Source of the DNA: Escherichia phage Eryne
Sequence record: PQ529420
DNA: 64,000 nucleotides
Reading direction: 5' to 3' (one strand)
In this document: positions 13,026 through 23,306 of the stretch, piece by piece
How the letters are laid out: the number at the start of each line of letters is the position of its first letter
Position numbering within the stretch: the first letter of the stretch is position 1
The notes under the pieces: generated by a model
What the model was told of the DNA's origin: nothing
What the model saw: only the letters and a program-made list of their open reading frames with translations
Databases searched by the model: none
Made by a program: the position numbers and the translations under genes

Positions 13026-13079
13026 GCGCCCTGGTTGGCGCGGTAGAAAGATAATAGCCCTTTCCTTTATAGATAGCAA
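13026..13079 (-). promoter_or_regulatory. promoter plus 5' stem-loop cassette (minus strand)
   Basis: rc TTGCTA (13074-13079), 17-nt spacer, TATTAT (13051-13056), hairpin gcgccctggttggcgc (13026-13041). Confidence 0.45.
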
Positions 13080-13114
13080 GCAAAAAAGAAATGAAAAAAA
13101 GATTAAAAAAATGG

Positions 13115-13143
13115 TTGACGTTCCTCACCTGGTAGCGTATTAT
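13115..13143 (+). promoter_or_regulatory. sigma70-type promoter
   Basis: TTGACG-17-TATTAT; followed by imperfect hairpin and a start-stop mini-ORF (ATG TAG at 13198-13203) behind AAGGAGGG. Confidence 0.45.
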
Positions 13144-13271
13144 TCATCTTGTCGAGGGGGGGCGAGGCACAACGACAATAAACAAAAGGAGGGCGCAATG
13201 TAGGACGGGCAAAGGTGAGGATCTCCATAATCCACCGTCACAATAACATTACTTATAAAAGGTTGATAACG

Positions 13272-13367
13272 ATGATCAAGAAAGAAAACAGCTTGACGGT
13301 TGGAACGATTAACGCTATCATTCTAGCCGTTCCATTTTGGGTTGTAGTAGCGGTTATTATCTTTTAA
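13272..13367 (+). CDS. small hydrophobic peptide (31 aa)
   Basis: Hand-translated MIKKENSLTVGTINAIILAVPFWVVVAVIIF; weak RBS. Confidence 0.25.
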   Translation: MIKKENSLTVGTINAIILAVPFWVVVAVIIF

Positions 13368-13375
13368 AAATATTC

Positions 13376-13432
13376 TTGACAACGTTTTTTAATCTGATAA
13401 GATGTATCACATAGGGCGGCAATAGTGCCGCT
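13376..13432 (+). promoter_or_regulatory. promoter plus 5' stem-loop cassette
   Basis: TTGACA, TAAGAT-like -10, conserved tatcacatag, hairpin ggcggcaatagtgccgc. Confidence 0.5.
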
Positions 13433-13455
13433 CATAACAGAAGAGAGAAATAATC

Positions 13456-13728
13456 ATGGCATCATATAGCGCATCAATGATCGTAACGGGCATCACTGGT
13501 AAACCTATGCGCGGTGGCGGATCTTTCGCTAACATAAATATTGATGGACGTTTATCCCTGGATGCAGCGATCACCGTGGCACGGGAAACATTTAAAAAAG
13601 AATGTAATTTCAATAAACAAGATTATCTCGGTTTCGCTATTGAAAAAACCGCGCGATTTGTGGATTATAAAAGCCCGAAAATGATCGACACTACACTAAA
13701 AGCGCAAGATGTAGCGTTTTTGCTTTAA
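13456..13728 (+). CDS. hypothetical protein
   Basis: ORF track; RBS AGAGAGA; own cassette upstream. Confidence 0.55.
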   Translation: MASYSASMIVTGITGKPMRGGGSFANINIDGRLSLDAAITVARETFKKECNFNKQDYLGFAIEKTARFVDYKSPKMIDTTLKAQDVAFLL

Positions 13729-13731
13729 GTC

Positions 13732-13791
13732 TTGACACTGAAAAATAATTTGGTAATATATACTCCATAAGGCGGGAAATGGTTTCCCGCC
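13732..13791 (+). promoter_or_regulatory. promoter plus 5' stem-loop cassette
   Basis: TTGACA (13732), TAATAT, hairpin ggcgggaaatggtttcccgcc (13771-13791). Confidence 0.55.
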
Positions 13792-13816
13792 AGGCCATCA
13801 AAGAAAGGGTAACACA

Positions 13817-14179
13817 ATGAGCAAGCAAATCAATACTATCATGTTAAACCTGGTATCTTTCCGCGACGACGTGAAAAATCTTCCACGTGATGCAGTGGAT
13901 GCACGGATCGAAAGCTATCGCTCACAGATCGCAACGCTACCGCTAAAACGTGATCAACATGCCGCTAATATGATGCTTAATGCTATGCTTAAAAAGATGA
14001 TTCAATGTGATCTTACCCTGGCTTATGAATATGCTGGCGATCTCTTTGTAACATATAGCAAGCCCGTACCAGGTATGAGCACAACGGAAGAATTGCATGC
14101 CTTAAATCTGCGACAAGATGCATGGGATAACATGCGCCGTGTTATGGTATGGGTAGAAAGCGGTAAAATTTACGAATAA
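13817..14179 (+). CDS. hypothetical protein
   Basis: ORF track; RBS AAGAAAGGG. Confidence 0.55.
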   Translation: MSKQINTIMLNLVSFRDDVKNLPRDAVDARIESYRSQIATLPLKRDQHAANMMLNAMLKKMIQCDLTLAYEYAGDLFVTYSKPVPGMSTTEELHALNLRQDAWDNMRRVMVWVESGKIYE

Positions 14180-14185
14180 AAACGG

Positions 14186-14240
14186 TTGACATTGCACTAA
14201 AACCTGATAAGCTATCTTAAAGCGGGAATAGTTCCCGCTT
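14186..14240 (+). promoter_or_regulatory. promoter plus 5' stem-loop cassette
   Basis: TTGACA (14186), TAAGCT-like -10, hairpin agcgggaatagttcccgct. Confidence 0.5.
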
Positions 14241-14257
14241 ACATAGGATAAAACTTT

Positions 14258-14404
14258 ATGAAACAATATGTAATGAGTATTCACACCAAAAACGGCGCTA
14301 CTGTTACGACTCCGGCACGGTTTGCACTTGTAAACCGTTGCAAGAGACTAAAACGAGAGCTAAAAAACAACCGTGCAACGGGCTTTAAACGCTGGGGAGG
14401 ATAA
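14258..14404 (+). CDS. small basic protein (48 aa)
   Basis: Hand-translated MKQYVMSIHTKNGATVTTPARF...; directly behind cassette. Confidence 0.4.
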   Translation: MKQYVMSIHTKNGATVTTPARFALVNRCKRLKRELKNNRATGFKRWGG

Positions 14405-14406
14405 TC

Positions 14407-21247: not shown

Positions 21248-21630
21248 AAACTGAAATCATTATTGAAATCATCAACGGTTATAAAGAAGCCTTTATTTTT
21301 GCTGAATCAGCCAGGGATCATGAAGGCTATTTTATTGATAACTTAGACGATTATGATTTTTCAGATCAAGCCCATCAGCGGATCATTCATGACGTAGCGG
21401 CTTATTGTGATGCCAATGATGCTGCTATCTCTGAGGCAATGAGCGACGGCGCTACAGCAAACCAGATCGGGAATGATTTACATTTTACCCGTAACGGTCA
21501 CGGCGTAGGCTTTTGGGATCGCCCTGAAATATACACTACTAACACCGCCAACCGCCTAACAAATGCAGCTAAATTAATGCCATCGGTGCATGCTTACATT
21601 GGTGAAGATAATTTGATTTATATTGAATAA
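21244..21630 (+). CDS. hypothetical acidic protein
   Basis: ORF track. Confidence 0.5.
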   Translation: MKTEIIIEIINGYKEAFIFAESARDHEGYFIDNLDDYDFSDQAHQRIIHDVAAYCDANDAAISEAMSDGATANQIGNDLHFTRNGHGVGFWDRPEIYTTNTANRLTNAAKLMPSVHAYIGEDNLIYIE

Positions 21631-21636
21631 AAAGTA

Positions 21637-21695
21637 TTGACACCGATCCCCCATATGGTATTATTTACCACGTAGGCGGGAAATGGTTTCCCGCC
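21637..21695 (+). promoter_or_regulatory. promoter plus 5' stem-loop cassette
   Basis: TTGACA-16-TATTAT then hairpin ggcgggaaatggtttcccgcc. Confidence 0.6.
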
Positions 21696-21718
21696 AGGTA
21701 ATCAAAAAGGTAAATACT

Positions 21719-22108
21719 ATGCGCAACCTGGTTTCTGTTTCTAACGTTGAAAAATTCCAATCTTTACAGGGTATCGTTAACAACGTAGCGCCTTTTTTAG
21801 TCAATGGCTTGATTGCAAAGATGAAAAATAAACATCATGCGGCATGGTCTGCTTACTGCTTTGATAATGATGAAAAAGCGGCTAAAATGATGTTAAATAT
21901 GCTGTTAGACAGTGTAGAATCATCTTTACCGGAAAACATCGCAGAAGAGATCACCTATCGTTATAAGATGGCGATCACTTACCAGGAGGTTGCGCAATTT
22001 AATATGATGGATGATGACGAACAACAGGATCAGGAAATGTTCTGGGAGTATGCAGATCGTCAATCGGCTTTTGATGAAAAGTTAGCGATGTATTATAACG
22101 AATATTAA
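21719..22108 (+). CDS. hypothetical protein
   Basis: Start moved to MRNLVSV; the track start lies inside the hairpin. Confidence 0.55.
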   Translation: MRNLVSVSNVEKFQSLQGIVNNVAPFLVNGLIAKMKNKHHAAWSAYCFDNDEKAAKMMLNMLLDSVESSLPENIAEEITYRYKMAITYQEVAQFNMMDDDEQQDQEMFWEYADRQSAFDEKLAMYYNEY

Positions 22109-22121
22109 TACACGGTAAAAG

Positions 22122-22148
22122 AAAGGGGCGCACTAAGCGCCCTTTTTT
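22122..22148 (+). terminator. rho-independent terminator
   Basis: aggggcgcactaagcgccct followed by tttttt. Confidence 0.65.
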
Positions 22149-22492
22149 GTATTCTTTTTCACAATGGAAGCGACACGTAAAGAATAGGCGTAAAGGTGGC
22201 GTAAAACCATCTAAAACCGACTGTAACCGCTTAAACAAGGTAGGAATGATTAATCACCTTACCAGGATGAAAAAGCTGTTATAAAGCTATCTAGAGCGTT
22301 TAAAGCACATAGGAAATAATTTGCTTTTTATCTTGCCTTTTATCCTGCTTTTGATTATTATTATGGAACGGGCGGCACCTGGGGACAGGGGAAGATAATC
22401 ACCGGAAGATCCCGCTATATATTAATAGCTAATACCTATCAAACAACAAAACATCAAAGGAATAAACTATCAAATCTTTACAATCCTACCTA

Positions 22493-22552
22493 TTGACACA
22501 GGATCACCCTTATACTAATATGTATCCCGTAGGGCGGGAAATGGTTTCCCGC
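22493..22552 (+). promoter_or_regulatory. promoter plus 5' stem-loop cassette
   Basis: TTGACA-17-TAATAT then hairpin gcgggaaatggtttcccgc. Confidence 0.6.
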
Positions 22553-22571
22553 TTGATATAGGAATCATACC

Positions 22572-22805
22572 ATGATCGAACAAATTAAAAGCACTACACC
22601 AAATGTTAACGGCAATGTTTCACACTTTATCAGTGATAATGAAAGGGGCACACCATACGCCGCCGTAACCGTGCAACCTAATGGCGATTATTGGTTTACC
22701 GTGTACGGATCATACTCTTTCGGACGCCCGGTACATGATAAGATCTTGCAAGCGGTTAAACCTGCGGGGAAGAATATCACAGCAGAAAAATTTTATAAAA
22801 AATAG
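22572..22805 (+). CDS. hypothetical protein
   Basis: ORF track. Confidence 0.5.
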   Translation: MIEQIKSTTPNVNGNVSHFISDNERGTPYAAVTVQPNGDYWFTVYGSYSFGRPVHDKILQAVKPAGKNITAEKFYKK

Positions 22806-22806
22806 C

Positions 22807-22835
22807 TTGCTTTATTTCTTCTGTTAACTTATAGT
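22807..22835 (+). promoter_or_regulatory. sigma70-type promoter with degenerate hairpin remnant
   Basis: TTGCTT-17-TATAGT then tatcgcgtagggcaaac. Confidence 0.4.
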
Positions 22836-22880
22836 TATCGCGTAGGGCAAACAATTTTAAACGGTAAACGAGGAATCACC

Positions 22881-23264
22881 ATGAGCAATATCATCAACCT
22901 GGCAGCGACTGTAAACGGTAAAGACTTTAACGGCGCTGTAGACCGTGATCCTATGTGGTGCTTATCAGTGTTTAAAGGCGATCTGGTTGAAGTTAGAACA
23001 ACCGAAGGGTATAGCGATGATTATAAATGCGAGATCCATTTACACAACTGGTACACGGGTAAAACTTATGCGCTGAATCATGCGTTTATCGGCAAGGTTG
23101 AATATAGAGAAATGATCGACGAAGAAACGGGGCAAGATTTTAGCGAGCATGTTTATATTCGTTCCGAGACATTAGCCGAACGTTTGATCGAGAAAATGAA
23201 AGCAAAAAATAAAATTAATTTAACTCATTGGATTGATATAACAAACGATCCTGCTTATCAGTAA
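22881..23264 (+). CDS. hypothetical protein
   Basis: ORF track. Confidence 0.55.
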   Translation: MSNIINLAATVNGKDFNGAVDRDPMWCLSVFKGDLVEVRTTEGYSDDYKCEIHLHNWYTGKTYALNHAFIGKVEYREMIDEETGQDFSEHVYIRSETLAERLIEKMKAKNKINLTHWIDITNDPAYQ

Positions 23265-23278
23265 ATAACATTTCATAC

Positions 23279-23306
23279 CAGGGCGCACAAAGCGCCCTTT
23301 CTTTTT
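23279..23306 (+). terminator. rho-independent terminator at end of cassette array
   Basis: gggcgcacaaagcgccc followed by tttcttttt. Confidence 0.6.

Follow-up and report, generated by a model that had tools for sequence, protein, structure and literature searches.

A small-gene array in the phi92-like coliphage Eryne is probably a hyperplastic region of cassettes behind a common hairpin leader

An array of promoter-led cassettes

We analysed a stretch of 64,000 nucleotides from Escherichia phage Eryne (sequence record PQ529420; hereafter the window), in which an array of small genes occupies positions 13361 to 23306 of the plus strand. Most of these genes follow a leader module that consists of a sigma70-type promoter and, as a rule, a GC-rich hairpin. 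We think it probable that this array is a hyperplastic early-gene region of about 28 plug-in cassettes, in which leaders fired by the host, hairpins at the 5′ ends of the mRNAs and a module-mediated recombination of cassettes come together. The phage is a Justusliebigvirus, i.e. a phi92-like coliphage of the subfamily Stephanstirmvirinae, and not a T4-type phage, the kind with which an initial annotation, made from the letters alone, had compared the region.

The pattern TTGACA-N15-18-TANNNT matches the 64-kb window 36 times, compared with 5.6 matches expected from shuffles (largest shuffle 12). Nineteen of these matches fall on the plus strand from 13376 to 22493, a stretch of 9.2 kb for which chance would give about 0.4 per strand. 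With the addition of two near-consensus promoters (15569 with CATAAT and 17053 with TTGCAA) the array comprises 21 promoters, all on the plus strand. The TTGACA hexamer is exact in 20 of them, the spacers measure 16–17 nt in all 21, seven have a TGn extended −10, and most carry an A-rich tract directly 5′ of the −35. A promoter stands directly in front of 20 of the 28 open reading frames (ORFs). A GC-rich (G-run/C-run) hairpin is found downstream of 16 promoters, the hairpin-less ones being 15305, 15569, 18150, 18615 and 19006, and one hairpin (20251–20271) has no promoter. The roughly 20 promoter-led units that the initial annotation had mapped by eye are well matched by these 21 promoters, 16 of them with a hairpin. 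Its statement that almost every gene has both elements holds for most genes, but not for the five promoters without a hairpin, the hairpin without a promoter and one leader without an ORF.

A conserved hairpin in the leader

The shared leader module is about 85 nt long and consists of an A-rich UP-like (upstream-element-like) tract, TTGACA, a spacer of 16–17 nt, TAnnnT, GTATCACATAG, the hairpin, a ribosome-binding site (RBS) and ATG. In 14 typical units the (GTAT)CACATAG stretch (GTATCACATAG) precedes the hairpin, and a purine-rich RBS with ATG follows it. Fourteen of the 16 hairpins fold with −13 to −19 kcal/mol, and those at 15227 and 19227 with −8 to −9 kcal/mol; z-scores of the hairpins tested range from −1.7 to −5.8 in comparison with dinucleotide shuffles. 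The hairpin core begins 9–14 nt past the −10 hexamer, mostly at 10–12 nt, the exception being 14186 with a helix at 6 nt. With a predicted start 6–8 nt past the −10, the hairpin would thus be located at about +4 to +6 of the message. A covariance model of linker plus hairpin found plus-strand copies in the window solely at 13.4–22.6 kb, and the linker-plus-hairpin module is absent at all promoters outside the array.

A survey of the window, nine Stephanstirmvirinae relatives, rV5 and the jumbo phage G17 yielded 70 distinct hairpin sequences at the equivalent position after a promoter. Among 97 distinct promoter–hairpin segments, 52 have the helix start 10–11 nt past the −10; it is nearer where the predicted helix extends into the flanks. 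The stems vary strongly (GGCGGGAAA, GCGGCA, GGCGGTGG and GTGGGGAA; GGGGC or GGGCA in rV5). When RNAalifold was run on a plain MAFFT alignment of 14 units, only four pairs were obtained, because stems of different length had been misaligned; we therefore adopted a covariance model and a structure-aware alignment. In this alignment of 54 distinct sequences 87% of the cells are paired. Compensatory changes at four pairs amount to 23 cells versus 10.7 in shuffles (one of 500 shuffles was as high), and the covariation score is 0.19 versus 0.124 (none of 500 shuffles), with its peak at slide 0, which is the true register. The outer pairs switch between G-C and G·U (GGGCGG...CCGCTC versus ...CCGCCC), and a strand-symmetric count gave 31 internal G·T pairs versus 16 A·C pairs (p = 0.04; the sequences are not independent). 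This alternation, together with the G·T excess, leans towards pairing in the plus-strand transcript. A role at the RNA level also fits the hairpin-only leader 20251–20271, which would lie within a polycistronic message. We regard the hairpin as a conserved structure that probably forms in the RNA. In a search of 11.5–25.5 kb against Rfam 15 no family scored above threshold, and the two sub-threshold matches are attributable to chance.

The same conservation could be read in terms of protein binding. The hairpin or palindrome, with its AAT(A/G)GTT top and the CACATAG linker, would then be a DNA operator or an RNA handle, which could serve the coordinated shut-off of the early set, its stabilisation or processing, or the targeting of recombination. 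Loop and linker are indeed conserved well beyond what pairing needs, the element stands at a fixed distance from about 16 promoters, and a recombinant module of phi92 has its crossover at TAGGGCGG, at the foot of the stem. A stem-loop-binding recombination protein was also raised as a possibility by Arbiol et al. 2010 (PMC2839356). However, stems as different as GGCGGTGG, GTGGGGAA and the GGGGC of rV5 still pair, which argues for recognition of structure rather than of sequence. Moreover, the conservation may reflect recent copying between modules, the element is absent at five promoters, and no candidate binding protein was identified. All in all, a binding site appears improbable to us.

The leader hairpins and transcription termination

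In the classic logic of promoter-early-stem-loop (PeSL) elements, the stem-loop is a terminator or attenuator that shields each cassette from upstream read-through, as in RB49 and phi1. Such a function would be useful in an array with 21 tandem strong promoters, and the G-run/C-run composition of the stems equals that in RB49, where the PeSL211/210 stem-loop cut lacZ expression as much as rrnB T1 did (PMC2839356). Yet each hairpin of the window lies downstream of its own promoter, so that a strong terminator at this position would abort its own message, about 25–30 nt after the start. In a rho-independent terminator the hairpin is directly followed by a U-tract, which was found at none of the unit hairpins: the sequence behind them is A-rich on the plus strand, and the minus strand has scattered T only and no T-run. 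A terminator scan flagged three unit hairpins, all on the minus strand. The array already contains three true terminators of another type (17912–17936, 22120–22148 and 23280–23298), which have a GGGCGC-N5-GCGCCC stem and a T-run and are unlike the unit hairpins.

The geometry differs as well. In the RB49 hyperplastic region HPR3, which we fetched and scanned in the same way as the window (17 promoters), 11 promoters have a stem-loop that occupies the spacer (TTGACAggggatcaccgatccccTATAAT) or covers the −10, and a leader hairpin downstream of the −10 occurs in one. The hairpins of the window, by contrast, always lie at least 6 nt and typically 10–12 nt past the −10, beyond the expected start site. 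We rejected the hairpins as terminators on sequence grounds alone (no T-run; separate canonical terminators), and a shielding function in the manner of RB49 therefore seems unlikely.

The record of phage Paula labels seven leader hairpins as 'terminator', six of them on the opposite strand; the features concerned are listed there under PAULA_TERMINATOR_010, 012, 013 and 016–020. Taken at face value this annotation speaks for termination. The labels are doubtful, however, because these hairpins lack T-runs and come directly after promoters; public minus-strand terminator labels on them are probably wrong.

Probable exchange of cassettes at the leader modules

A presence/absence matrix of eight relatives revealed that the ORF content of the array differs among them. 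Four of the eight carry ORF 15370, ORFs 20641 and 21032 likewise occur in four each, 13456 and 13817 are missing in muut, and some ORFs (16099, 22572) are present as divergent alleles. The array is thus not syntenic and invariant throughout its relatives, a pattern that would have spoken against the initial annotation. From collinear alignment chains between the array and the relatives we took 47 distinct junctions, of which 33 lie inside modules, although these cover 21.5% of the region (p ~1e-12); nine are located in other intergenic DNA and five inside coding sequences. When the comparison is made with non-coding DNA alone, however, the modules hold 79% of the junctions versus 67% expected (p = 0.066), and the clustering thus cannot be distinguished from selection for intact genes.

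The argument for mobility is therefore carried by chimeric modules, which we found in four relatives and which combine the promoter of one cassette with the hairpin and ORF of another. In phi92 the u19990 promoter directly precedes the u20562 hairpin with its ORF, the two intervening ORFs (20073–20560) are gone, and the crossover lies in the shared TAGGGCGG. ESCO13 and PD114 have u13376 joined to u13732, and muut has u16752 joined to u17053. At the junctions, the alignments share 7–96 nt of module sequence. The orphan leader u15227 is probably a relic of a cassette deletion, and both this leader and the hairpin-only leader at 20251 look like remains of similar recombination events. From the chimeric modules and from differences among relatives that are delimited by cassettes, we infer that cassettes turn over mainly by homologous recombination between modules. 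The initial annotation's proposal of mobile cassettes is largely supported by the variable content, the junctions in units, the four chimeric modules and the presence of cassettes in other phage groups.

That the modules are merely strong promoters with a fortuitously conserved leader, and that ordinary recombination with survival of intact-gene variants produced the pattern, would suit the non-significant enrichment over other non-coding DNA and the junctions in coding and other intergenic sequence, but is highly unlikely, since the four chimeric modules cross over within shared module sequence, junction alignments overlap in module sequence, cassettes in other phage families are accompanied by related leaders and the mechanism has been demonstrated experimentally in RB49.

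Cassettes in other phage groups

Cassettes of the array recur outside the subfamily. The Vequintavirus rV5 contains counterparts of 15370 (93% nucleotide identity), 21032 and 22572, and a partial one of 13817. Its ORF174, the homolog of ORF 15370–15549, stands behind a leader of the hairpin type, whereas the window has the hairpin-less u15305 at this place. In the jumbo phage G17 (Asteriusvirus) homologs of 13817 and 16099 are adjacent cassettes, each behind a u16017-type leader, of which there are at least five in 5 kb; both the u16017 leader and ORF 16099–16338 are common to the jumbo phages G17 and 121Q. The T7-like Kayfunavirus CLBP1 has a u20837-type leader fused to a homolog of 22572 (89%). 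The segments that are common to other phage groups start and stop at cassette boundaries.

A far-reaching reading, which we offer tentatively and with low confidence, is that the linker-plus-hairpin leader is an 'adaptor' common to phi92-like, phAPEC8-like and rV5-like phages, the jumbo group of G17 and 121Q and one or more T7-like phages. It would serve early mRNAs as a dedicated cis-element for a phage or host factor, and it would also be the place where crossovers preferentially occur in an integron-like exchange network that works without an integrase and moves ready-to-express accessory genes between families.

A probable mechanism

Judging by the promoter sequences, unmodified host sigma70 RNA polymerase would fire all cassettes on entry of the DNA. 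Each short mRNA would then carry the hairpin as a 5′-terminal structure beginning about 4–6 nt into the transcript, and this would most likely guard the message against decay that depends on the 5′ end (RppH, RNase E), as a standard leader independent of the ORF behind it. Such protection is suggested by the position of the hairpin, the strand bias and the missing terminator features. Not the hairpins but the three canonical terminators would delimit the blocks of transcription. With more than 20 copies that all point the same way, the module would offer short patches of homology, and recombination between modules would delete, insert or swap whole cassettes and leave genes unbroken. A similar exchange probably extends to unrelated coliphage groups with similar leaders.

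The nearest parallel for the proposed RNA function is the 5′ untranslated region of E. coli ompA, for which a stabilising 5′-terminal stem-loop was reportedly described by Emory, Bouvet and Belasco in 1992. Like ompA, the window has a stable hairpin close to the predicted 5′ end of its messages, ahead of an unstructured stretch with the RBS, and the hairpin leaves the Shine–Dalgarno (SD) sequence unmasked. The window differs in that the predicted 5′ tail of 4–6 nt is perhaps too long for full protection, and in that the element is repeated on about 16 messages of one phage.

Several points weigh against the proposed cassette mechanism, in addition to the lacZ result in RB49 and the control with non-coding DNA. 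An unpaired tail of the expected length is at or beyond the limit for protection by a 5′ hairpin, as this limit is said to follow from the work on ompA. Five promoters manage without a hairpin. The alignment used for covariation was fitted to a model and its sequences are related, so that it constitutes support rather than proof, and the bias of G·U over A·C is modest and comes from sequences that are not independent. Selection for intact genes could explain much of the junction clustering. Finally, we infer the start sites, the early timing and the activity of the promoters from the DNA sequence.

Comparison with known systems

PeSLs are defined by an AT-rich tract, a near-perfect sigma70 promoter, a G-run/C-run stem-loop and an SD with ATG upstream of ORFans (PMC2839356). 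In RB49 and phi1 they occur in hyperplastic regions, mediate indels and shuffling, and form mini-circles (PMC2839356, PMC4122927). The array resembles these elements in the AT-rich tract, the near-perfect TTGACA-N17-TATAAT, the G/C stem-loop, the SD and ATG, in the dense arrangement before ORFans of a hyperplastic region and in indels or replacements that are joined inside the elements. It differs in the phage group (Stephanstirmvirinae here, T4-type there), and the terminator function published for the RB49 PeSL is unlikely for the hairpins of the window on the grounds given above. A direct kinship with the RB49 PeSLs was rejected in view of the different geometry, the lack of any nucleotide similarity between them and the window, and the weak matches of the unit covariance model in RB49 (E > 0.08). 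The promoters 21637, 22493 and 12734 (the latter on the minus strand) have RB49-like GGATC-type spacer motifs, a hint of past exchange between the types of module. The likeness to PeSLs that the initial annotation saw therefore stands for composition, ORFan context and joints within elements, but not for the stem-loop, which is predicted to be transcribed, lacks a U-tract and is positioned unlike that in RB49. The array is best described as a PeSL-like kind in another phage family that is distinguished by its transcribed leader hairpin.

The PeSLs and elements termed PmSLs that Comeau et al. 2014 described for T4/PST and KVP40/nt-1 are likewise composite motifs beside variable ORFs, and 'half' or degraded elements mark past rearrangements there (PMC4122927), comparable to the orphan leader 15227 and the hairpin-only leader 20251. 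In those phages, however, the stem-loop is placed just upstream of the promoter (terminator first), the promoters are off the sigma70 consensus or of the Mot type, and the stems are richer in A/T (PMC4122927).

By analogy only, the array is reminiscent of integron cassette arrays. Both have small ORFs, mostly of unknown function, that point in one direction between repeated structured elements, and in both cassettes are gained or lost at these elements and are common to unrelated genomes. Yet here each cassette has its own promoter, and exchange apparently proceeds via short homology and not via site-specific recombination. Family scans found no recombinase family among the ORFs of the array; no search aimed at an integrase or attC was made. 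Public annotations upstream of the array name an ATPase/FtsH-like protease, a hypothetical protein ('endonuclease' in phi92) and a YbiA-like glycosidase.

Strong host-type early promoters are clustered at the genome ends of T7 (A1–A3) and T5 (pre-early and early regions). The array is similar in having consensus sigma70 promoters with UP-like tracts near a genome end and small genes, which serve host takeover in T7 and T5, and it includes homologs of gp1.1 and gp30.8. The difference is that nearly every gene here has its own promoter and that a common leader hairpin is present. Within our incomplete coverage of the literature, we found no account of such modules in phi92-like or rV5-like phages but only generic promoter lists, such as that of the rV5 paper with 33 sigma70 promoters.

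Genes of the array

The coordinates of the modules, ORFs and terminators are compiled in Table 1. Conserved small ORFs number 28 (34–184 aa), and with one mini-ORF of 26 aa they account for the 'about 30' counted in the initial annotation. PHROG families could be assigned to 27 of the 28; 26 have no known function and one is merely a 'membrane protein', the sole ORF without a PHROG being 20291–20560. Pfam recognised three ORFs and left 25 without a family, so the earlier view that the proteins have no recognisable motifs holds for these 25 but not for 16099–16338 (DUF7249), 17769–17906 (Phage_1_1, the T7 gp1.1 family) and 22881–23264 (Phage_30_8, the T4 gp30.8 family, which is also found in about 1,000 mostly T4-like records). 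Two uncharacterised early genes of model phages, T7 gene 1.1 and T4 gene 30.8, thus have their homologs in one array of a third phage family. The host-takeover or anti-defence roles that the initial annotation associated with such cassettes are speculative for the ORFs of the array. Computed properties bear out the predicted secreted or membrane, basic and acidic proteins: 18217 has a signal peptide, 19078 and 20917 encode small membrane peptides, and several proteins are very basic (isoelectric point, pI, 10.3–11.7) or acidic (several, pI 4.3–4.9).

Table 1. Features of the small-gene array, in order of position in the window
Feature	Positions	Strand	Description
Whole array	13361–23306	+	21 promoter-led leader modules, about 28 small ORFs; blocks separated by three canonical terminators
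u13376	13362–13455	+	UP-like tract, TTGACA, 16-nt spacer, TG-TAAGAT, GTATCACATAG, hairpin 13414–13433 (−14.4 kcal/mol), RBS; leads ORF 13456–13728 (90 aa)
u13732	13718–13816	+	Hairpin 13771–13791 (GGCGGGAAATGGTTTCCCGCC); leads ORF 13817–14179 (120 aa)
u14186	14172–14257	+	Hairpin 14220–14240; leads three-gene block 14258–14404, 14407–14667, 14669–15223
u15227, orphan leader	15213–15304	+	Promoter and weak hairpin 15270–15282, no ORF; abuts next promoter
u15305	15291–15369	+	Perfect TTGACA-16-TATAAT, no hairpin; leads ORF 15370–15549 (59 aa)
u15569	15555–15644	+	TTGACA-17-CATAAT, no hairpin; leads ORF 15645–16010 (121 aa)
u16017	16003–16098	+	Perfect consensus promoter, hairpin 16058–16074; leads ORF 16099–16338 (79 aa, DUF7249)
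u16434	16420–16515	+	Hairpin 16473–16493; leads ORF 16516–16743 (75 aa)
u16752	16738–16830	+	Hairpin 16792–16807; leads ORF 16831–17046 (71 aa)
u17053	17039–17136	+	TTGCAA-16-TAAACT; different stem GGCGGTGG/CCCACCGCC, hairpin 17091–17114 (−18.7 kcal/mol); leads ORF 17137–17307 (56 aa)
u17315	17301–17393	+	Hairpin 17353–17373; leads ORFs 17394–17753 (119 aa) and 17769–17906 (45 aa)
Bidirectional intrinsic terminator	17912–17936		GGGCGC-N5-GCGCCC stem, A-run and T-run
60-aa ORF	18026–18208	+	Without own consensus promoter; contains promoter u18150 of next gene
u18150	18136–18216	+	No hairpin; leads ORF 18217–18618 (133 aa, signal peptide)
u18615	18601–18665	+	No hairpin, strong AAGGAG SD; leads ORF 18666–18968 (100 aa)
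u19006	18992–19077	+	No hairpin; leads ORF 19078–19197 (39 aa, C-terminal membrane helix; phrog_10979 'membrane protein')
u19227	19213–19297	+	Small hairpin 19267–19278 (−7.8 kcal/mol); leads ORF 19298–19621 (107 aa)
u19622	19608–19703	+	Hairpin 19663–19683; leads ORF 19704–19988 (94 aa)
u19990	19976–20072	+	Hairpin 20029–20051; leads ORF 20073–20243 (56 aa)
Hairpin-only leader	20244–20290	+	Hairpin 20251–20271 (−17.3 kcal/mol), no promoter; leads ORF 20291–20560 (89 aa)
u20562	20548–20640	+	Hairpin 20600–20619; leads ORF 20641–20835 (64 aa)
u20837	20823–20916	+	Two-tier hairpin 20875–20898; leads ORFs 20917–21021 (34-aa membrane peptide), 21032–21247 (71 aa) and 21244–21630 (128 aa)
u21637	21623–21718	+	Hairpin 21675–21695; spacer ccgatccccc, similar to one half of a spacer stem of the RB49 type; leads ORF 21719–22108 (129 aa)
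Intrinsic terminator	22120–22148	+	GGGGCGC-N5-GCGCCC, then TTTTTT
u22493	22479–22571	+	Hairpin 22532–22554; spacer caggatcaccc resembles RB49 PeSL spacers; leads ORFs 22572–22805 (77 aa) and 22881–23264 (127 aa)
Intrinsic terminator closing the array	23280–23298	+	Canonical

The acidic protein of 128 aa encoded by ORF 21244–21630 (plus strand) has the invariant motif WFTRNGHGVGFWDRPE, and its AlphaFold model is very confident (predicted local distance difference test, pLDDT, 96; predicted template modelling score, pTM, 0.90). Neither a fold match (Foldseek best E-value 1.1) nor a sequence match was found in the PDB, and the structural relatives are exclusively uncharacterised proteins of Xanthomonas, Burkholderia and Synechococcus phages. 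A profile search retrieved 8,890 clusters at 50% identity, none of which, including those of longer fused proteins, has a Pfam or NCBIfam annotation; remote members are among small unannotated ORFs in other mobile elements. This cassette gene represents a very large unannotated family in which the fold is predicted with confidence and no member has a solved structure.

The block 14258–15223 behind u14186 may be a functional module of three genes: the first product (48 aa) has a pI of 11.7, the second gene (86 aa) starts with TTG, and the third product (184 aa) is acidic. The 184-aa protein (14669–15223) has a conserved N-terminal W..H..GYSGEQ.GNR and is confined to phages of about 150 kb; its structure model is poor (pLDDT 68, pTM 0.38), and no sequence match was found in the PDB. 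An 87-bp insertion at 16339–16433 has no counterpart in any of the eight relatives compared. It contains a strong AGGAGG SD and the 26-codon, very basic mini-ORF 16353–16433 (MKHRSTYLTKRFSLDHKLGYYGRNRK).

Setting of the array

The flagged stretch is 99.6% identical to phage Paula (LR865361.1), and matches to the whole or a part of it occur in 289 phage records. In phi92 the array corresponds to gp225/226 to gp248 and ends about 1.1 kb upstream of the annotated right terminal repeat, which maps to about 24390–24732 of the window. The 1.7 kb at 23306–25000 are AT-rich, devoid of ORFs and contain a 16-bp repeat at 23880–23930. Because the right terminal repeat of phi92 maps there, this part contains the physical genome end, which the window spans. 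From about 8 to about 38 kb of the window all genes are on the plus strand.

Between the YbiA-like gene and the array lies another AT-rich, ORF-free region (11950–12700). It has a 67-bp tandem repeat at 12190–12320, of which a degenerate third copy reaches to about 12400, and a 17-bp repeat at 12429–12463, followed by GC-rich hairpins. The region resembles an origin of the iteron type or a regulatory sequence; the muut record also annotates repeats in the corresponding region. A consensus promoter on the minus strand (12734–12706; TTGACAagcccagggatcgggctTATACT) has a spacer that itself forms a stem-loop in the style of the RB49 PeSLs. It reads into the ORF-free repeat region and may give rise to a non-coding transcript or to origin transcription; the Rfam search returned nothing at this promoter.

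Several records with 92–96% identity to the region bear the names of phages of unrelated hosts, among them 19 of 'Campylobacter phage' (e.g. MG065645), 'Enterococcus phage heks' (39.7 kb) and 'Acinetobacter phage vB_AbaM_ABPW7'. They are likely to be mislabelled, contaminated or chimerically assembled. A link of the array to Ksap2, the Avs2 trigger of Bas60, was rejected, as Ksap2 is Bas60_220 and the array corresponds to bas60_0114–0144.

Implications

If the proposed scenario is true, PeSL-type shuffling would not be specific to T4-type phages but would be a general way for large virulent coliphages to keep and trade small early genes. The transcribed 5′ hairpin leader would constitute a separate design and is a candidate mRNA stabiliser or regulatory handle. 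It would also mark independently expressed early accessory genes, the usual class for anti-defence and host-takeover functions, and would offer natural borders for the deletion or swapping of cassettes in therapeutic phi92-like or rV5-like phages.

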